This document shows, one piece after another, positions 37,859 through 47,688 of a DNA stretch of 64,000 nucleotides. The translations under genes were made by a program, and so were the position numbers. The stretch's first letter is position 1. Every line of letters starts with the position of its first letter. Under the pieces are notes generated by a model. That model searched no databases and was not told where the DNA came from. It saw only the letters and a list, made by a program, of their open reading frames with translations. Origin of the DNA: Methanothermococcus sp. Ax23 (lineage in GTDB: Archaea > AGJL01 > Methanococci > Methanococcales > Methanococcaceae); NCBI RefSeq assembly GCF_049075655.1, contig NZ_CP157522.1, forward strand, positions 960,001-1,024,000, given 5' to 3'.

Positions 37859-38626
37859 TTAATTATTTGAACCTTCAATTACTCCTTCTTTTAATTCCTT
37901 AGCTTTTTCTTCAAGTTTTTTCACAGTTTCCTCAGAATCGCCATATTCTTCAATTATTTTTACATAGGCACTTCCAACTACAACACCGTCTGCACCGTTT
38001 TTTATAAATTCTTTTGCATGCTCTTTTTTTGATATTCCAAATCCAACATAAACTGGTTTTTTACATAAATTCTTTGTTCTATTAAGGAAATCTAGGGCAA
38101 GATTTGAAACATCATCCCGAGCTCCTGTTGTTCCATATACAGATACAAGATAAACAAACATAGAGCTCGCCTCATCAATCTTCTTCAATCTGTCCTCTGA
38201 GGTATTTGGTGCCGCAAGGAATACCGTTCCAATATCGTATTTTTTACAAACATCTAAATATTCCTCAGCATCTTCAACAGGCAAATCTACAACAATAAGT
38301 CCATTTCCGCCAACTTCTTTAAGTGTTTTAACAAAATTCTCCACACCTTTTGTAAATACCGGGTTGTAGTATGTCATTACAACAACGGGGGTGTCGGAAG
38401 TTTTCCTAAACTCTTTTATTATATCAAAAACCTTTGAAACTTTCATACCATTGTTTAATGCCCTTACATCTGCTTTTTGGATTGTTTCTCCATCTGCCAT
38501 AGGGTCGCTGAATGGAATTCCCAATTCGATTATGTCCGAGTATTTAGAAAGTGCGTTCATAAATTTCAATGTAGCGTCAGGAGATGGGTCTCCTGCAACA
38601 ATAAAGCTCACAAGTTTTTTTTCCAT
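37859..38626 (-). CDS. trpA: tryptophan synthase alpha chain
   Basis: [32 protein letters not shown]. Confidence 0.97.
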
Positions 38627-38667
38627 AAAAACACCTCTTTTTGCATTTTTTAAATATGATGTCGTAA

Positions 38668-39423
38668 TTAATAGGATTTAATGGATATGTCATATTTTGC
38701 ATTAACACTAATGGACTTTAAAATATCTTCTGTTCGTTTTCTTATTGAATCCATATTTATTTTCTTTTTGAGAACTCCAAGGGTTCTTTTTGGAATTAAA
38801 ATTACATTACATCTGTAATGATATATTCCATTTTCATACTCCACTTCAACATTTAATGCATAATCGTGAATCATATCCTGCTCTTTTAGTATGTCAAATA
38901 AATTACATGATAGCTCATCAATGGCAGTTTTTTCCATGGTTCTGAGCTCCAATTTATCAGGTTCAAATGTTTTGCTTATAAGATTATCAATATATTCATC
39001 ATCAGGTAATTTGATGCCAAGTTTTTTTAGGAGCTCATCTCTTTCAGGGTTTCCACCACATCCTTCATCCTCACCTTTGAGATTTTTGGAAGATTTATTC
39101 CCTTCCCCAAATCCGTAGTCAATAACTGGGTAGACAAATATTTTTCCATCCCCGTAATTTCCCGTTTTTGCACTATTGGTTATTGTAGATATTATGTCTT
39201 CCAAATGTTCCTCATCAGTTATTAGCTCCATTTTTGTTTTTGTTTTTTGAACATCCATTACAAATGTATGTCCCCTATATTCCCTAACAACTTTTTCGCC
39301 AACTTCACGCCTTCTGCCTTTAACATCTGAAATAAGAATATCGTCCTTATGTCCAAATTTTGCAAGTGCGGCGATTACATCGGCTGTTTTCTCTGGTCGC
39401 AATACTGCTTCCACCAAATACAC
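38668..39423 (-). CDS. divergent PII (GlnK-like) domain fused to a ~140-aa unknown C-terminal domain
   Basis: [19 protein letters not shown]-loop, [15 protein letters not shown]-loop; GTG start after AGGTGA RBS. Confidence 0.85.
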
Positions 39424-39473
39424 AATATCACCTAATGTAATCAATATACACACTATTATATCTCAATCAAATC

Positions 39474-40643
39474 TTAGAATTTAATATATTTCATAACAGT
39501 TCCTAAATCTTTATCTCCCCTTCCTGAGAGATTTACTATTATAATTTCATCTTTATCCATTTCCTTTGCCATTTTCATACCCTGAGCTACTGCATGAGAT
39601 GATTCAAGAGCAGGTATGATTCCCTCTGTTCTGGACAATTCTAAGAACGCATTTAATGCCTCTTCATCTGTAATTCCTGCATACTGCACCCTTCCTATGT
39701 CCTTCAAATATGCATGCTCAGGACCTACACCGGGGTAATCCAGTCCAGCGGATACGCTGTATGTTTCTTTTATCTGCCCGTCTTCATCCTGTAAGAAGTA
39801 TGAGAACATACCATGTAATATTCCCTTTCTACCTTTCAACAACGAAGCCGCATGTCTTTCTGTATCAAGACCTTCACCAGCAGCCTCAACACCAACAAGT
39901 TGAACTTCTTTGTCATTTTTGAATTCATTGAATATACCTATTGAATTACTACCTCCACCTACGCAGGCAACAATACAGTCAGGAAGTCGCCCTTCTGCTT
40001 CCAATATCTGCTGTTTTGCCTCTCTACCTATTACTGACTGGAAATCCCTAACCATTGAAGGATATGGGTATGGACCAACAACAGAACCTATTAAATAGTG
40101 GGTGTATTCGAATGTTTCCACCCAGTCCCTAAGTGCTTCGTTTATGGCATCCTTTAATGTTTTTGAACCAGATTCAACAGGATGAACTTCTGCACCGTGC
40201 AGTTTCATCTTATAAACATTTAACTTCTGCCTTTCTACATCTATTGCTCCCATGTAGATTTTTGCCTTCATATTGAACAATGCCCCAACCATTGCAGTGG
40301 ATAAACCATGCTCTCCTGCACCAGTTTCAGCAATAATTCTTGTTTTACCCATTTTTTTAGCAAGGAGTGCCTGACCTAAACTGTTGTTTATTTTGTGAGC
40401 TCCGCCTAAAAGTAAATCTTCTCTCTTCAAATATATTTTTGCTCCACCCATCTTCTTTGTAAGGTTTTCAGCGAAGTATAATGGAGTCTCCCTACCTGCG
40501 TATTTTTTTAGGTAGTAGTCGAGCTCCTCCTTGAACTCAGGGTCATCTTTATATTCTTTATATGCTTTTTCGAGCTCCTTTAATGATGGCATAAGCACCT
40601 CAGGAACATATTGACCGCCGTATTCTCCAAATTTAAATTCCAT
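39474..40643 (-). CDS. trpB: tryptophan synthase beta chain
   Basis: [39 protein letters not shown]. Confidence 0.98.
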
Positions 40644-40679
40644 TTTATCACCTAATTTTTTATTATTTGTTAAATTTTG

Positions 40680-41309
40680 TTATACATTTGCCTCATTTAA
40701 ATTTTTAACAAATGATTTTATTAATAATTCATCTTTTTTATTATTCTTTTCAACACCGCTGGATAAATCGACACCATAAGGTTGCACATACTCAACAATT
40801 TCCTTAACATTCTCAGGATTAAGACCTCCTGCAAGAATTATGTTAAAGTTTTTTGCGATTATTTTGCTTACTCTTAAATCGTGTGTAATTCCGCAACCTT
40901 TTCCAGTATCGAGAAGTATATTACAAACATCAGTATATTTTTTTATTTCATTTATTAGATTTTCAGCATCTCTTTCTGGATTTGAACTTAATGAAGGAAC
41001 TTTAAACGCTTTTATTATATTAATGTTATAATTATTTTTCAATTTAACAATCTCATCAACATCCATCTTTGAGTGGATTTGTATATATTTAGTTCCAGTT
41101 TTTTCTATTATCTCCGCCCAGTCGTCATAAGTATTTACTGTGGATACAGCATAAACAGGAATATTTGCAATTTCCATTAATTCTTTTGCTTTTTCAAGTG
41201 GTATTTGTCTTTTGGACTCGCTTTTAACAATAACTCCTGTGGCATTAGCATATCTTTCAACTATTTTTAATTCTTCTTCTGATTTGATGCCGCATATTTT
41301 GATAAACAT
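40680..41309 (-). CDS. trpF: phosphoribosylanthranilate isomerase
   Basis: IKICGI, IQIH, LLDT, LAGGLNPENV, GVDLSSGVE. Confidence 0.95.
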   Translation of the reverse strand: MFIKICGIKSEEELKIVERYANATGVIVKSESKRQIPLEKAKELMEIANIPVYAVSTVNTYDDWAEIIEKTGTKYIQIHSKMDVDEIVKLKNNYNINIIKAFKVPSLSSNPERDAENLINEIKKYTDVCNILLDTGKGCGITHDLRVSKIIAKNFNIILAGGLNPENVKEIVEYVQPYGVDLSSGVEKNNKKDELLIKSFVKNLNEANV

Positions 41310-41319
41310 AATGTTCCCT

Positions 41320-41907
41320 CTATTTATAGCTCAATACCCTATCTACAAAGTTTTTTATTATTTTTAATCCCTCTTTATTTTCCCATTCAGTCAATACGCT
41401 TTCAGGGTGGAATTGAACCCCTTCAATAGGTTTTGTTTTATGCCTAATGCCCATAATTATTTCTTCATCCGTATCAATGGTAGTTGCTGTAATTTCAAAA
41501 TCCTCAGGAACTTCAAGGACTGCAAGAGAATGGTATCTTCCAACCTCCAACGGATTTTTAACATTTTTAAATATGGTTTTTCCGTCGTGTTTTATTATAC
41601 TAGACTTTCCATGAACTGGGGGTATTCTATCAACCTTTCCGCCAAATATATGGGCTATAATTTGATGACCAAGACAAACTCCCAATATTGGAACATCCAT
41701 ATTCATTATAATTTCTGGACAGTTTTCAATATCTCTTTTTTTGTCCGGAGCTCCGGGACCTGGTGATATAATAATCCCATCTGGATTTATTTTTTTAACC
41801 TCTTCAAGAGTTATAGTGTTTGGAACAACCTTTATTTTATCATATATGGAAGCATATTCTGCCAAATTCCATACAAACGAATCCTTATTGTCTATTATTA
41901 AAATCAT
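41320..41907 (-). CDS. trpG: anthranilate synthase component II
   Basis: IDNKDSF, SPGPGAP, GVCLGHQ, RYHSL, QFHPES. Confidence 0.95.
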   Translation of the reverse strand: MILIIDNKDSFVWNLAEYASIYDKIKVVPNTITLEEVKKINPDGIIISPGPGAPDKKRDIENCPEIIMNMDVPILGVCLGHQIIAHIFGGKVDRIPPVHGKSSIIKHDGKTIFKNVKNPLEVGRYHSLAVLEVPEDFEITATTIDTDEEIIMGIRHKTKPIEGVQFHPESVLTEWENKEGLKIIKNFVDRVLSYK

Positions 41908-41937
41908 AATTTCACCTTTGTTGGGAAATTACCTGGA

Positions 41938-43299
41938 TTATTTATCGATATCATGTTCCACCTCTAATGCACGCATAACAGCCGCCATTTTTCTCTCGGT
42001 TTCGATATATTCATTTTCAGGAACAGAATCCGCAACTATTCCAGCTCCTGCTCTTAATCTAATGGTATCGTTGTCTATTTCTGCCATTCTTATGGCTATT
42101 GCAGTATCTGCGTGATTACTCAGTGAGAAATACCCCACAGCACCGCCGTATATTTTTCTTCTGGATTTTTCCAGTTCATCAATTATTTCCATTGCCCTAT
42201 ATTTCGGAGCTCCTGTTAATGTTCCCGCAGGGAATGATGCCTCTATTGCATCGAACATTGTAGCACTGTCTTTTAACTCCCCGATTACCTCACTTTCTAT
42301 GTGCTGAACATGACTGTATCTTATTACCTCAAAGAATCTAGTTAATTCAACAGTTCCAGATTTTGATATCTTTCTTACATCGTTTCTTGCCAAATCAACA
42401 AGCATCATGTGTTCAGCTCTTTCTTTCTCATCATTAAGGAGCTTTTCAGCAAGTTCTTTTGTTTCTTCCTCGGTTTTTCCAACTTTCGTAGTTCCCGCAA
42501 TTGGATTTATTTTTAAAATACTGTTCTCAACTGATGCCATTGTCTCAGGAGACGCCCCCACAACATCCTTTTCAAATTCAAGCAAAAACATATAAGGACT
42601 TGGGTTGAGCTCTCTCAAATTTCGATATATTTTAAATGCTGAATAATCGCTTTTTAATTGATACTCCCTTGATATTACAACTTGGAAGGCATCACCGCTG
42701 TAAATATAGTCCTTTGTTTTTTCCACCATTTCCATAAAATCGTTTTTATTTGCATCGCATCCAACGATATTTGTTCCGCCTTTTTCATCCACTATTTCGG
42801 ATTTTTTAGCTTTTTCAATAACTCTTTCGGCATTTTTCATTTCTTCAAGAGAATTGTTTAATGACAGGTAGTAATATCTGTTTAGTATGTGGTCATAAAC
42901 ATAAACATTGTTGTAATATCCAAATACAGAAGCTTCCTCAATATCTCCGCCGATATAGTTATGTATCGTATCATAGGCGAAGTATCCTAAAAAACCTCCC
43001 GTAAATCTCTCGTTTAATTCAATATTGCTAATTTCTTTTTTGTTTTTTATTTCTGATTCAAATATCTCTTTTAATGCCTTAAATGGATTACTTTCCTTTG
43101 AAACTGTGCTGTTGCCTATTTTTGTATTATTTTTAATATTTACAACAAACTCTGGATTTGAAGATATATATGTATATCTCGCTTTTGAAGGGTGTTTGTC
43201 CCTCGACTCTAAAATAAATGGATATTCCCCTTCCTCTCTTAAAACATTATACAGTTTCAATGGGTCGATATAATCAAACTTCTGCCTAAATAGCTTCAT
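41938..43299 (-). CDS. trpE: anthranilate synthase component I
   Basis: NPSPYMF, GASPE, PIAGT, KERAEHMMLVDLARND, FPAGTLTGAPK. Confidence 0.97.
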   Translation of the reverse strand: MKLFRQKFDYIDPLKLYNVLREEGEYPFILESRDKHPSKARYTYISSNPEFVVNIKNNTKIGNSTVSKESNPFKALKEIFESEIKNKKEISNIELNERFTGGFLGYFAYDTIHNYIGGDIEEASVFGYYNNVYVYDHILNRYYYLSLNNSLEEMKNAERVIEKAKKSEIVDEKGGTNIVGCDANKNDFMEMVEKTKDYIYSGDAFQVVISREYQLKSDYSAFKIYRNLRELNPSPYMFLLEFEKDVVGASPETMASVENSILKINPIAGTTKVGKTEEETKELAEKLLNDEKERAEHMMLVDLARNDVRKISKSGTVELTRFFEVIRYSHVQHIESEVIGELKDSATMFDAIEASFPAGTLTGAPKYRAMEIIDELEKSRRKIYGGAVGYFSLSNHADTAIAIRMAEIDNDTIRLRAGAGIVADSVPENEYIETERKMAAVMRALEVEHDIDK

Positions 43300-43317
43300 A
43301 CTATCCCATTCTATCTT

Positions 43318-44346
43318 TTATTTATAATTTTGAATTTTTGTCAATTTATTTAATACAATTCCATCATCAATGGCATTTTTTGCCATTTCGAGACCTTCCT
43401 TATAATCTGATGCCACATCTGATGCATAAAGGGCCGCAGCAGCATTCAATAGTATAAAGCCCCTATTCTCATTAATTTTTCCTGAAAATATCTCAAAATC
43501 CTTCGGATTTTTACGATTTCCTTCGCTTCGCTCGAAAACCTCGATTATTCTTTTGGCACTTTCATCAGGGCTTCCGCATGGAATAGGTTTTGAAGGGGTT
43601 AATCCAATATCCCTTGGATGTATCTGGTATATTTCATTTTCCTTATTTTCGTTTATTTCGCAAATTGTAGAATAATCATTTGGGTTTAATTCATCCAATC
43701 CATTTCCATAAACTACAAGAGCTCTTTTAACACCAAGGAGTTTTAATGCATCCCCAACTTTTTCAACTAAATCAGGGGAATTTACTCCCATAATCTGATA
43801 ATCAGGGTTTGCAGGGTTTGCAAGTGGTCCCAATATATTGAATATTGTTTTTATCCCCAATTCTTTTCTAACAGGCATTATTTTTTTCAATGCAGGGTGA
43901 TATTTTGGAGCAAACAAAAACACAAAGTTTGTTTCATCAATCATTTTTTTAGCTTCCTCTGGTGTGGAATCAATTTTAATGTTCAATGCTTCCAAAACAT
44001 TTGCAGAACCGCTTTTTGAAGTAATGGATACATTTCCGTGTTTTGCAACCTTTTTAAAACATGATAATACGATAGATACAGCGGTGGAAACATTTATTGT
44101 GGAAAAACCATCCCCTCCTGTTCCGCAGGTATCACAAACACTTCCTAAATCTACTTTAACGGCATTATCTCTCATCGCCTTCGCAAAACCGGCAATTTCT
44201 TCGGAAGTAAAGCCCTTAGTTTGAAGTGCTGCAAGATATGCCCCTATTCTTATTTCACTTTCATTTAAAAGGTTATTGAATAAATTATATGCCTCTTCAT
44301 AAGTTAAATCCTTTCTATCCACTATTTTATTTAATAAGTCGTTCAT
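43318..44346 (-). CDS. trpD: anthranilate phosphoribosyltransferase (with 16-aa repeat-derived insertion)
   Basis: DTCGTGGDG, AKHGN.S.TSKSGSA, TIFNILGPL. Confidence 0.96.
   Translation of the reverse strand: MNDLLNKIVDRKDLTYEEAYNLFNNLLNESEIRIGAYLAALQTKGFTSEEIAGFAKAMRDNAVKVDLGSVCDTCGTGGDGFSTINVSTAVSIVLSCFKKVAKHGNVSITSKSGSANVLEALNIKIDSTPEEAKKMIDETNFVFLFAPKYHPALKKIMPVRKELGIKTIFNILGPLANPANPDYQIMGVNSPDLVEKVGDALKLLGVKRALVVYGNGLDELNPNDYSTICEINENKENEIYQIHPRDIGLTPSKPIPCGSPDESAKRIIEVFERSEGNRKNPKDFEIFSGKINENRGFILLNAAAALYASDVASDYKEGLEMAKNAIDDGIVLNKLTKIQNYK
43486..43533 (+). repeat. double-hairpin short repeat inserted in frame in trpD
   Basis: AAAATCC-TTC-GGATTTT then TTTC-CTTCGCTTCGCTC-GAAA; encodes ERSEGNRKNPKDFEIF. 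Confidence 0.8.
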
Positions 44347-45074
44347 AATTTCGCCTCCACAAATGATTTAACAAATTCCTCCATATTTTTTGCCTTCATA
44401 AAGCTTGTTCCTATAAGTGCCGCATCGGCATACTTTAAAGCTATTCTTAAATCATCTATCGAGCCAATACCGCTTTCACTAACAAATACTACATCCTTTG
44501 GAATTAAATTGGATAGTTGTTCCGTAAGGGATACTGTTCCATCGTCGAGCTCTAACTTTGTAATATCTCTATTATTAACACCAATCATTGTGGTGTTTGT
44601 ATCCTTTGCTATGTCAATTTCCTCCTTATTATGAACTTCCACAAGAGTATCCAATCCATGTTCAAGGGCATAATCAACGAATTCGGCTGTTTCATCCTTT
44701 AACATTCTCGCTATTATTAATATCGCCCCTCCCTCTGCTTCTGCTGTTTTTTCAATCTCATCTTTTGTGGTGATGAAATCCTTTCTTAAAACCGGGAGCT
44801 CGGTTGATGCACATATTTTTTTGAACATGTCAAAGTTCCCGTTAAAGTATTTTTTAGCGGTAATGTAGGATATTCCCGCAGCTCCTGCATTTTCATATAT
44901 TCTAAGAATATCTATTTCATCCCTTCCTTTAAGCATATCGCCATATTTTGGAGAATGGACTTTTATTTCTGCTATTATTGGATTTCTGCACTTGTGCGGA
45001 AATTCACAAATCTCTGATTTGGGTAAATTTTTGCTATTATTTTTTGTGTTTATTATTGAATTGACCATCTTCAT
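44343..45074 (-). CDS. trpC: indole-3-glycerol phosphate synthase (with 15-aa repeat-derived insertion)
   Basis: IIAEIK..SP, PVLRKDF, LVEVH, IGVNNRD, SESGI. Confidence 0.95.
   Translation of the reverse strand: MKMVNSIINTKNNSKNLPKSEICEFPHKCRNPIIAEIKVHSPKYGDMLKGRDEIDILRIYENAGAAGISYITAKKYFNGNFDMFKKICASTELPVLRKDFITTKDEIEKTAEAEGGAILIIARMLKDETAEFVDYALEHGLDTLVEVHNKEEIDIAKDTNTTMIGVNNRDITKLELDDGTVSLTEQLSNLIPKDVVFVSESGIGSIDDLRIALKYADAALIGTSFMKAKNMEEFVKSFVEAKL
44982..45026 (-). repeat. double-hairpin insertion in frame in trpC
   Basis: CAAATC-AGA-GATTTG then ATTTCCGCAC-AA-GTGCAGAAAT; encodes LPKSEICEFPHKCRN. Confidence 0.6.
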
Positions 45075-45225
45075 GATATCACCAGTTAATAGTTATGCTT
45101 ATATTAATATAATCATTAAATTAAATATATAAGTTAATAATTATAGGGGCTATTATGGCAAATAACCACATATTTGATAACATTTGAAAAGCATTTAATA
45201 TTTACACTAACAACTATTTAAAAAA

Positions 45226-45324
45226 TCACCACCATCTCCAAACAACATTGGAGTGGTTGCTAAAAAAAGAATCCATTTTATATATGTTCGAGATTTTCGT
45301 TCTCTTTATGTTGGATAATTCCAT
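45226..45324 (-). CDS. putative trp operon leader peptide (32 aa, MELSNIKRTKISNIYKMDSFFSNHSNVVWRWW)
   Basis: AGGTG RBS 5 nt before ATG; three Trp codons in the last four; T6 run right after TGA; 151 nt upstream of trpC; below the ORF-track length cutoff. Confidence 0.8.
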   Translation of the reverse strand: MELSNIKRTKISNIYKMDSFFSNHSNVVWRWW

Positions 45325-45371
45325 ATTTGCACCTTATTGGAAAATTATAATTAAAAAATATAATTTTATAG

Positions 45372-45387
45372 TATATATAATTTTTTG
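45372..45387 (-). promoter_or_regulatory. putative BRE/TATA promoter for the leader and trp operon
   Basis: Minus strand CAAAAAATTATATATA about 50 nt upstream of the leader ATG. Confidence 0.55.
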
Positions 45388-45451
45388 ATATCTTATGTCA
45401 AATTAATATTATTTAATCTAGTTAATCTATTTATTTAATCTATTGTGCCTT

Positions 45452-46126
45452 TTAAATATATTTTTCCATAGAAGTATCCCAATACTGTGTGTGGATATAA
45501 TATAATAACATCCCAAATATCCAAATGGCTACTGGAATTAATATAACAGTCATGGCAAATATAAATGCCACAATATATAATATTATCTCCAATATCACCA
45601 CTACAATAGTTAGTATAATATTGAATATTAAAATATCAAGCCATGTTTTTTTCAATATGTCAAATATGGTTCTAAATTCAAATATTGACGATAATTTACC
45701 TGTATTGGCATAATGAGATAATGCAATTGGAGTGATTAATGCAAATATTATAAGACATAATATATAAAAAATCAAAAATAATATAAAAATCAACATCATC
45801 ATAACGCCAAGTCCGGCTGTTCTATCATCAAGGATTAATAAAAAACCTCCTCCTAAAAATACATACCCAATTATCAGTATGATAATCGGAATTATGGCAT
45901 ATATTAAGATAATCACTATCCCAATAATTCCCCCAATAAACTGATTAACAATATTAAATTCAGGTAATTTGTTTTCAAATCCGCCGGAAACAAGTTTTAT
46001 TATATCTATCATATATCCATATAATGCCAAATTGAGAATTGGTATTGCCCCAATTATTCCACCAATGGCAAGTTTCTTTTTCCAATTTTCATCATTGAAC
46101 AAATATTTAAATGATTCAGATATCAT
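45452..46126 (-). CDS. DUF4013-like membrane protein (possible C-terminal frameshift)
   Basis: ESFKY.F.D..WKK, IPILN...YGY, LPEF, PIALSHYA.TG. Confidence 0.8.
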   Translation of the reverse strand: MISESFKYLFNDENWKKKLAIGGIIGAIPILNLALYGYMIDIIKLVSGGFENKLPEFNIVNQFIGGIIGIVIILIYAIIPIIILIIGYVFLGGGFLLILDDRTAGLGVMMMLIFILFLIFYILCLIIFALITPIALSHYANTGKLSSIFEFRTIFDILKKTWLDILIFNIILTIVVVILEIILYIVAFIFAMTVILIPVAIWIFGMLLYYIHTQYWDTSMEKYI

Positions 46127-46362
46127 TGTACCCCTCCAACTTTTTTAAGAGCTCATCTGCAATACTCAAAAACACAGGAAGTATATAAAACACTCCGACA
46201 AAACCTGCAATAAGTCCCGTAATCAATCGCAATTCATTAAAGCTTTCCCTTAATCCTATCAGTTGAGTAGTTCCATCAATTCCCATAGGTATCAATGCCA
46301 TAATTAAATACCATTTGTTGGGTGTTTTAAAGTCATTTAGTTTTTTTACTGTCAAATTTCAT
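46116..46362 (-). pseudogene. DUF2085-like membrane protein, C-terminal remnant
   Basis: PMGIDGTTQLIGLRES.NELRLITG motif; the RBS-preceded ATG at 46362 is out of frame and the N-terminal half is missing. Confidence 0.65.
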
Positions 46363-46422
46363 AATACCTCCCCTTAATTCTATATTTATATTTACAAATT
46401 TAATATTTAATATTTGTAATAT

Positions 46423-47688
46423 TTAAACATTTCCACATGCATCATACACTTCTCCATTAATAATAGTATATATCGGAGCTCCCCTTACACACCACCCTTC
46501 AAATGGTGTAAATTTAGCCTTAGATTTAAAGTTCTCACCTCTTATAATAATTTCCCTATCCAACTCAACAATCGTTAAATTTGCTTTATTTCCTTCCCTT
46601 ATCTCATTATCAATATTAAATATTTTTGATGGATTTTCCGATAGAACCCTTACAGCATCAAATATGTTAATTATCCCCTTATTTACCAAATCAAGCGTCA
46701 ATGGAACAAGAGTTTCAATTCCTGGAATTCCAGAAGGGCAGTTCTCCACGGAATTATTTTTTTCTTCATAAGTATGTGGTGCGTGGTCTGTTGCTATTAT
46801 ATCTATTTCTTTATTTACTATACCATTTATAAGTGCCTTATTGTCTTCTTTTGTTCTAAGCGGTGGATTAAATTTCCCCATCCCTTTTAATTCCTTAGCC
46901 ATATCCATATTTAAAAATATATGGTGCGGTGCAACTTCCGCAGTGATTTTAACATTTTTAAATTTAACTTTTGCATCAGTGATTAAATTTAGCCCCTCTT
47001 TTGTGGATACATGGCAGAAATGGACATGCGGCTTTTTATCATTTAATTTATCGATTATTTCTAAATTCCTTAAAACTTCTTTCACTGCCTCAATTTCGCT
47101 TCTTTTGTCCCTTATCTTACAATGGTTAGTCCAGCTGGTGAGCTCATATTTTTTTAAGTTTTCAGCAATTACATCCTTATGTTCCGCATGTATTGTAAAT
47201 AGTTTATTTTGGTTTAAAATGTCCTTTAATTTTGAATACTCGCTTATGAATAAGTCCCCAACGGATTTTACCATAAAAATCTTGTAGGATTTTGCATCCT
47301 TTATGGTTTCCATGTAGTTATTTTCAGTAATTCCAAAGTTGAATTCAATATTTATCTTACTTTGATTTTTCCCTTCATGATATTTTTTATAGAAGAGCTC
47401 CGTTGTGGTGGTTGGTGGGTTGCTGTTGGGCATGTCTATGGCATAAGCTACACCGCCGTTAATAGCTGCTTCGCTTCCACTTATGAAATCCTCCTTTTCA
47501 GGTTGCCCATATCTAAAATGAACATGGGAGTCAATAATTCCCCCCATAACTATTTTTCCTTTTAAATCGATTTTCCGCCCATCATGGTTAATATTTTTAC
47601 CTATTTTTTTAATTTCATCCCCTTCGATTAAAATATCTGCTTCGATTATATTGTTATTTTTTATTATTTTGCAGTTTTTTAGAAGCAT
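46423..47688 (-). CDS. pyrC: dihydroorotase
   Basis: [38 protein letters not shown]. Confidence 0.92.

Follow-up and report, generated by a model that had tools for sequence, protein, structure and literature searches.

A candidate tryptophan-sensing leader peptide gene ahead of the trp operon in Methanothermococcus sp. Ax23 and related methanogens

Attenuation by a leader peptide is a textbook bacterial mechanism, which needs both the coupling of transcription to translation and termination driven by an RNA hairpin. Bacterial leader-peptide control can also depend on a factor, as in the case of tnaC with Rho. Archaea couple transcription and translation but terminate at U-tracts and via the factor aCPSF1/FttA. 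Here, we describe a small open reading frame (ORF) located just ahead of the trp operon in a stretch of 64,000 nucleotides (nt) from Methanothermococcus sp. Ax23 (contig NZ_CP157522.1, positions 960,001 to 1,024,000). This whole stretch is called the window, and positions are counted from its first letter. With moderate confidence, we interpret the ORF as a cis-acting, Trp-sensing leader peptide gene, analogous to trpL, on which a stalled ribosome would disable a terminator made of a hairpin and a U-tract. The archaeal trp regulators described in the accessible part of PMC6737238 are the repressor TrpY of M. thermautotrophicus and the activator Tar (TK0271) of T. kodakarensis. Both are DNA-binding proteins acting at promoters, whereas the conserved feature at this locus is an ORF with Trp codons. 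In the full-text literature searched, which lacks most subscription journals, no description of a leader-peptide attenuator in an archaeon was found. In Haloferax, some small ORFs in 5' untranslated regions seen by ribosome profiling are merely called reminiscent of leader-peptide genes in the accessible part of PMC10117724.

The ORF is missing from the protein collection of the genome. The initial annotation of this DNA had pointed to an unannotated ORF in which three of the last four codons are TGG, equipped with its own ribosome-binding site and upstream TATA box, followed directly by TTTTTT and ending 151 nt before trpC. All these elements are present, the coordinates of the ORF are exact and the distance was the same when re-measured. 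From the candidate promoter to trpC, the region is organized as follows:

45372-45387, minus strand: B recognition element (BRE)/TATA-like box CAAAAAATTATATATA, candidate promoter from which the leader would be transcribed (P1), ending 47 nt before the leader ATG
45330-45335, minus strand: Shine-Dalgarno-like AAGGTG, read in the sequence, 5 nt before the leader ATG
45226-45324, minus strand: leader ORF, 32 codons and a TGA stop, with an ATG start and a peptide ending in W-R-W-W
45262-45268, minus strand: U7 tract in the Ser-Phe-Phe codons of the leader ORF, about 5 nt 5' of the hairpin
45231-45257, minus strand: predicted hairpin with 5' arm ACCACUCCAA, loop UGUUGU and 3' arm UUGGAGAUGGU, the latter holding Trp codons 29 and 31 and the Arg codon
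45229-45240, minus strand: putative regulatory codons UGG AGA UGG UGG, from sequence and translation Trp29, Arg30, Trp31 and Trp32
45220-45225, minus strand: U6 tract (TTTTTT), candidate terminator or aCPSF1 recognition tract, 0 nt after the TGA stop
45205-45210, minus strand: UUAGUG motif, present in each of the three leader-bearing genera, 13-21 nt 3' of the last Trp codon
45121-45135, minus strand: TATA-like box AACTTATATATTTAA, singled out by sequence conservation, perhaps a second promoter (P2) or a regulatory site of another kind
45078-45083, minus strand: Shine-Dalgarno sequence GGTGAT of trpC

The last Trp codon is separated from U6 by 3 nt. The 151 nt between the leader stop codon and the trpC ATG (45074) form an AT-rich spacer.

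In its layout, the locus resembles enterobacterial trpL (RF00513, Trp_leader). Judging from the predicted translation, a short ORF led by a Shine-Dalgarno sequence and ending in clustered Trp codons lies co-oriented ahead of the trp operon; a hairpin and a U-run follow, and the rest of the peptide drifts freely. Unlike in trpL, the Trp codons are found within the terminator-like hairpin itself and not in an upstream segment 1, no mutually exclusive 2:3 antiterminator was found in the Methanothermococcus-type loci (genus 1), and the first gene is reached only after the 151-nt spacer containing the conserved TATA-like box. The host differs as well: according to the accessible part of PMC8116511, termination by archaeal RNA polymerase takes place at U-tracts, whether aCPSF1 takes part or not, and does not use the bacterial hairpin mechanism. 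An Rfam search of positions 44000-46500 (cmscan, E <= 1) gave no match to Trp_leader, the three sub-threshold matches belonging to unrelated families. By analogy, the element probably functions like a bacterial leader-peptide attenuator, yet it stands outside the Rfam Trp_leader family.

The leader ORF is not due to chance. Across the 1.67-Mb genome (32% G+C), 13,506 ORFs of 15-80 amino acids start with ATG; 31 of them have at least two TGG codons among their last five, and three have at least three. The leader is the sole intergenic ORF of those three, the other two sitting within long ORFs. Restricting the survey to intergenic small ORFs leaves 5,175, of which 19 contain at least two W in the last eight residues; inspection of the downstream context revealed a T-tract for the leader alone. 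A functionless ORF arising by chance in AT-rich intergenic DNA would draw on this large supply of intergenic small ORFs. Given the rarity of three in 13,506, the conservation of the ORF before trpC and a frame that is kept open in divergent versions, we consider such an origin exceedingly improbable.

Leaders for other amino acids were also sought by a crude genome scan requiring a Shine-Dalgarno sequence, a small intergenic ORF, a T-tract and at least three identical residues among the last ten. It yielded 25 ORFs, among which the trp one alone is leader-like. An F-rich ORF of 14 codons (genome positions 889908-889952) was rejected as a leader, the next gene coding for an unrelated FAD-type oxidoreductase. 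An identical ORF of 37 codons with a T-rich tract is present in three copies (G000:C1 893836-893949 on the plus strand, 1279441-1279554 and 1504847-1504960 on the minus strand) and probably belongs to a repeated unit, for instance a ribosomal RNA operon.

Conservation in relatives was assessed upstream of trpC, which was detected in 41/41 related genomes. The comparison covered 30 loci, with G015 and nine genomes of the neighbouring family left out. A leader was recorded when an ORF of 12-90 codons, with at least two W in its last eight residues, lay at most 700 nt upstream of the trpC ATG. This rule is satisfied in 14/30 loci, or 12/30 after removal of L016 and L017, which were rejected because their ORFs lie out of frame inside a long upstream ORF. 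The leader ORF is present in 4/13 Methanothermococcus-type loci (genus 1), in the single genus-2 locus (1/1) and in all seven Methanococcus-type loci (genus 3, 7/7). By exact protein matches, genus 3 includes Methanococcus maripaludis and M. voltae. By the same rule, it is absent from the single fourth-genus locus (0/1) and from the eight loci of the neighbouring family (0/8). The distance from the Trp-ended ORF to trpC across the 12 loci ranges from 135 to 273 nt. Public genome and metagenome contigs provided 16 further loci, three of which are uninformative with less than 120 nt of upstream sequence, and five carry a leader ORF. Among those five, L031 is the same contig as L002, L114 is like L003, and L111, L113 and L121 are new variants. 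The comparative check suggested in the initial annotation, a conserved Trp-rich small ORF with a U-tract upstream of trpC in Methanococcales, was thus positive in three genera.

In-frame TGG pairs or triplets are located 0-4 codons from the stop in 16/16 leader-bearing loci, with peptides ending in WRWW, WRW, WRWCGFL, KWGWCF, TWWC, QWWQ or QWWH. In all lineages compared, a U-rich tract begins 0-17 nt 3' of the last Trp codon, and the TAG of the UUAGUG motif is invariant in 15/15 alignment rows. A Shine-Dalgarno sequence of the GGTG-, AGTG- or GTGG-type is found 6-8 nt before the start in 15/16 leader loci, including L009, where the start is GTG instead of the ATG of its relatives. The exception, the metagenome variant L121 (100-340), has a leader of 17 codons ending in TWWC and no Shine-Dalgarno sequence. 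About 22 nt separate the end of its TATA-like box from the ATG, so the transcript might be leaderless; 3' of its U-tract there are two UUUAGUG copies in tandem. The core of P1 was recognized by sequence comparison in L005, L004, L111 and L113 as well. The U7 tract inside the leader is kept in genus-1- and genus-2-type leaders, and in an archaeon such a tract could by itself pause or terminate transcription.

The upstream flanks of 15 loci fall into eight similarity groups. As the upstream neighbour varies to this extent, the element is tied to trpC and not to the preceding gene. A BLASTN search with the leader in the 23 family genomes matched the four known genus-1 genomes with E <= 2e-38. The next match, G015:C67:9098-9137 in the fourth genus, covers the 5' part of the leader (42 nt, 84% identity, E 6.6e-5) and is located on a contig other than the trpC contig of that genome.

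The predicted RNA structure of the leader region consists of one local hairpin. The Trp codons form its 3' arm in both the minimum-free-energy and the centroid folds, which agrees with the stem first proposed for this ORF. The isolated 46-nt hairpin piece has a folding energy of -13.9 kcal/mol (z = -2.75), and 3/200 dinucleotide shuffles are equally stable; over the entire 286-nt leader region, the structure is not unusual (z = -0.77). RNAalifold applied to eight genus-1 sequences predicts a single hairpin of 10 pairs, again with the Trp codons as the 3' arm, and changes in the 5' arm of L004 and L005 still pair, as G.U. The gap between the stem and U6 is 5 nt. In L005 and L003, the stop codon is shifted and the spacing between Trp codon and U-tract is unchanged. 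The leader hairpin was not picked up by a consensus terminator scan, which made one call, inside the upstream gene.

The Methanococcus-type loci (seven sequences from two clades) are built differently. Their leaders, like the one in the window, lie before trpC, have terminal Trp codons and contain a related K-[ML]-x-S-F block, and the UUAGUG motif is common to both. They end, however, in QWWQ (M. maripaludis-type) instead of WRWW, the Trp codons make up the 5' arm of a 7+4-bp hairpin with the stop codon in its loop, and no U6 follows right after the stop. The 3' arm lies after the stop and is followed by UUUGUU, and a second, covarying hairpin (B) is found downstream. The 16 pairs of this structure are standard in 112/112 cells. 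In hairpin B, two pairs have changed on both sides, and its score is reached by 6/500 column shuffles. The UUAGUG motif constitutes the 5' side of hairpin B and is also the partner of a post-stop UCACU. For this UCACU, an alternative partner may be AGUGG, a segment overlapping hairpin B; 34/35 cells are paired, two sequences share one compensatory change from A-U to G-C, and L019 shows the intermediate mismatch. As 65/500 shuffles do as well as this 5-bp 2:3 candidate, the pairing hints only weakly at a classical 1:2 / 2:3 / 3:4 topology, which it would give to the Methanococcus-type relatives. An occlusion mechanism without an antiterminator, as originally suggested for the locus, therefore fits genus 1, where no alternative pairing was found; the Methanococcus-type relatives, however, have a candidate classical arrangement. 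In every lineage, the Trp codons are inside a predicted hairpin and a U-rich tract comes next.

The peptide itself evolves freely. Leaders range from 17 to 43 codons, and non-synonymous changes equal or exceed synonymous ones in 12/13 pairwise comparisons. When the letters of each ORF are shuffled, an open frame has a probability of 0.016-0.21 in each of six divergent versions; multiplied together, these values give 5e-8, an overstatement because the six versions are kin. The last eight codons and the stop of the seven Methanococcus-type loci (columns 21-47 of A1) contain two variable positions, synonymous sites included. This conservation of the C-terminal block at synonymous sites in 7/7 loci indicates a constraint at the RNA level. 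What is retained despite the drift is the frame, the terminal Trp codons, the hairpin holding them and the U-rich tract. Judged by its sequence, the ORF behaves as a leader peptide rather than as a protein. An independent small protein with a Trp-rich C-terminus, merely travelling with the trp operon, would be in line with the K-[ML]-x-S-F motif common to genus-1 and genus-3 peptides and with the M. maripaludis and M. voltae homologues, which are annotated as 'hypothetical protein'. Non-synonymous changes at least as frequent as synonymous ones in 12/13 pairs, a length ranging from 17 to 43 amino acids, the synonymous-site identity of the C-terminal block in 7/7 genus-3 loci and the lack of any Pfam family match for the leader ORF make it a very doubtful explanation.

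In the mechanism that we propose, transcription would start at the BRE/TATA box, which lies some 47 nt ahead of the leader ATG, and the ORF, led by its Shine-Dalgarno sequence, would be translated during RNA synthesis. With ample Trp-tRNA, the ribosome would pass UGG-AGA-UGG-UGG and leave at UGA, setting free the hairpin and U6. Transcription would then stop, either intrinsically or via cleavage by aCPSF1/FttA, and little RNA would extend to trpC 151 nt further on. With scarce Trp-tRNA, the ribosome would stall on the Trp codons, melt the 3' arm of the hairpin and cover the next ~12-15 nt, including the stop and U6. The terminator would then neither form nor be recognized, and RNA polymerase would continue into trpCDEGFB-x-A. 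From the anatomy of the locus, its conservation and the presence of aCPSF1, we infer how the transcript is laid out, that ribosomes stall, that transcription terminates here and in which direction the operon responds. A gene for aCPSF1 is present in the genome (TIGR03675, 973.8 bits, cut-off 580.2), as are genes for two further beta-CASP nucleases. Termination by aCPSF1 in M. maripaludis is linked to U-tracts in the accessible parts of PMC8716108 and of a preprint.

Several observations weigh against this attenuation mechanism. The first is geometric. In bacterial expressomes, the ribosome decoding site lies about 20-30 nt or more behind the polymerase active site. The Trp codons are located 6-21 nt from the end of U6. 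By these bacterial figures, a ribosome on the Trp codons would hardly coexist with a polymerase on the U-tract, and pure hairpin-driven intrinsic termination fits poorly unless the polymerase pauses or termination takes place after its transit. Other observations concern the RNA and its distribution. In the relatives, the hairpins surpass shuffled sequences by no more than a modest margin (z from -0.6 to -2.3), and an antiterminator pairing was not found in genus 1, neither by RNAalifold on the eight sequences nor in ribosome-masked folds. No such ORF precedes trpC in 9/13 same-genus genomes, and BLASTN over all 23 family genomes found no relocated leader copies in those nine; the element is thus dispensable and not essential. 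Contigs from four vent metatranscriptome/metagenome runs lie on trpC/trpD and on the DUF4013 gene upstream of the leader, and none lies on 45052-45427, which makes them uninformative on leader transcription. Lastly, the conserved TATA-like box in the spacer is situated 58 nt before the trpC ATG, a promoter-like distance comparable to that between P1 and the leader. At such a normal promoter distance, it could allow trpC to be transcribed independently.

The geometry leads us to favour two variants of the attenuation mechanism: a pause at the U-tract that awaits the ribosome, or binding and cleavage by aCPSF1 at the exposed U-tract after transit of the polymerase. The post-transit variant would resemble Rho-dependent tnaC more closely than the trpL of E. 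coli. As with tnaC and Rho, a ribosome at the end of the leader would cover the RNA site of the factor, which here would be U6, 0 nt after the stop, in a genome that encodes aCPSF1. As in factor-dependent attenuation, the stall codons are within one ribosome footprint of the U-tract (3 nt here and 0-17 nt in the other lineages). Unlike in tnaC, the stall would result from a shortage of charged tRNA-Trp and not from free Trp acting on a nascent arrest peptide, and the proposed factor is aCPSF1/FttA and not Rho.

The TATA-like box is the basis of a different explanation, with two transcription units. The leader would have its own promoter and end at U6, and the trp operon would start from the box at 45135-45121, where a Trp-responsive DNA-binding regulator might act; the leader would act in trans, as rnTrpL/peTrpL of S. 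meliloti, or through promoter interference on read-through. The box is kept in L001, L002, L004, L005, L111 and L113, and as ATCNATATATYTRAC in 7/7 genus-3 loci. The initial annotation had mentioned this second TATA (TTATATA, 45132-45126) as a caveat, and its conservation in the core genus-1 loci and in all genus-3 loci makes the caveat stronger than it had been stated. The position of the box, ~58 nt from the trpC ATG, resembles the distance of P1 to its ATG and falls on a weak genome-wide peak. Such a peak cannot decide on promoter status, since TATA-like words are too common in this genome, with about 30-50 per 5-nt bin expected by chance in 563 upstream regions. Two units would also suit the spacer of 135-273 nt, far longer than that of bacterial attenuators. 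Protein control of archaeal trp operons, by TrpY and Tar, is documented in the accessible part of PMC6737238, and trans-acting trp leader products are described in bacteria. On the other hand, L003 and L121 have not retained the box, and no regulator gene adjoins the trp operon within the window as judged by Pfam, TrpY/Tar homologues elsewhere in the genome not having been searched for. Two units would also leave unexplained why the Trp codons are locked in a hairpin with a U-tract in every lineage. We regard this arrangement as rather unlikely. The inverted repeat around the box was rejected as a conserved RNA hairpin: G.U pairs preserve it in L002, but there is a C-C mismatch in L113 and the 3' arm is missing in L005.

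Stalling at the Trp codons could also have a post-transcriptional output, through a change in how a leader-trpC mRNA is cut by endonucleases, or in its stability, at the U-rich/UUAGUG region. The same conserved anatomy applies, and UUAGUG, 13-21 nt after the last Trp codon in three genera, would be near the edge of a stalled ribosome. Nucleases are at hand in the form of aCPSF1 and the two further beta-CASP proteins, and the geometry disfavours the ribosome and RNA polymerase being there together. U-tracts, though, are the known archaeal termination signal in the accessible part of PMC8116511, and we consider a post-transcriptional output decidedly unlikely.

For the Methanococcaceae as a whole, we tentatively propose an archaeal form of attenuation that would do without an antiterminator. 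The Trp codons would be built into the terminator hairpin, and a starved ribosome would shield hairpin and U-tract from folding and from aCPSF1/FttA. The 3'-arm and 5'-arm designs would then show how the element has been rebuilt under selection. The main texts of PMC7515710, PMC8716108 and PMC10450193 on M. maripaludis make no mention of trp, a leader or attenuation in a relevant sense.

The operon downstream was identified by Pfam and contains the following genes:

37859-45074, minus strand: trp operon, with trpC, trpD, trpE, trpG, trpF, trpB, a P-II/DUF2226 gene and trpA
44343-45074, minus strand: trpC
43318-44346, minus strand: trpD
41938-43299, minus strand: trpE
41320-41907, minus strand: trpG
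40680-41309, minus strand: trpF
39474-40643, minus strand: trpB
38668-39453, minus strand: P-II/DUF2226 gene
37859-38626, minus strand: trpA

The Pfam E-values of the trp enzymes range from 2e-53 to 7.5e-93, except for trpF (1.1e-30) and trpB (9.4e-41). In T. kodakarensis, the trp operon has the same order, trpCDEGFBA, in the accessible part of PMC6737238. The additional gene between trpB and trpA codes for 261 amino acids; the N-terminal residues 13-112 form a P-II-like domain (PF00543), and a DUF2226 part is also present. Full-length homologues are present only in G000 and G010, the G010 copy being in the trp operon about 5.4 kb after trpC, and G003:C59:1109-1441 is a stop-riddled remnant of the gene. 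Its product may be a ligand-binding accessory protein or regulator of the trp operon. On the other side of the leader, the upstream DUF4013 gene contains a palindromic stretch at 45522-45604 and 45550-45573 (minus strand). Its match to an Rfam microRNA family, seen on either strand, is sub-threshold at 29.6 bits, the gathering score being 74, and its terminator-like and microRNA-like signals are probably due to chance.

For annotation, the leader calls for a correction, as the ORF is missing from the proteins of this genome and appears as a 'hypothetical protein' in relatives. If the attenuation reading is true, the locus would provide, for Archaea, a first worked example of attenuation that is coupled to translation and assisted by a factor. 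It would show how the attenuator design came to suit a eukaryote-like polymerase together with a CPSF73-type factor. As the family includes the tractable M. maripaludis, it would allow a direct test of whether an archaeal ribosome steers termination.

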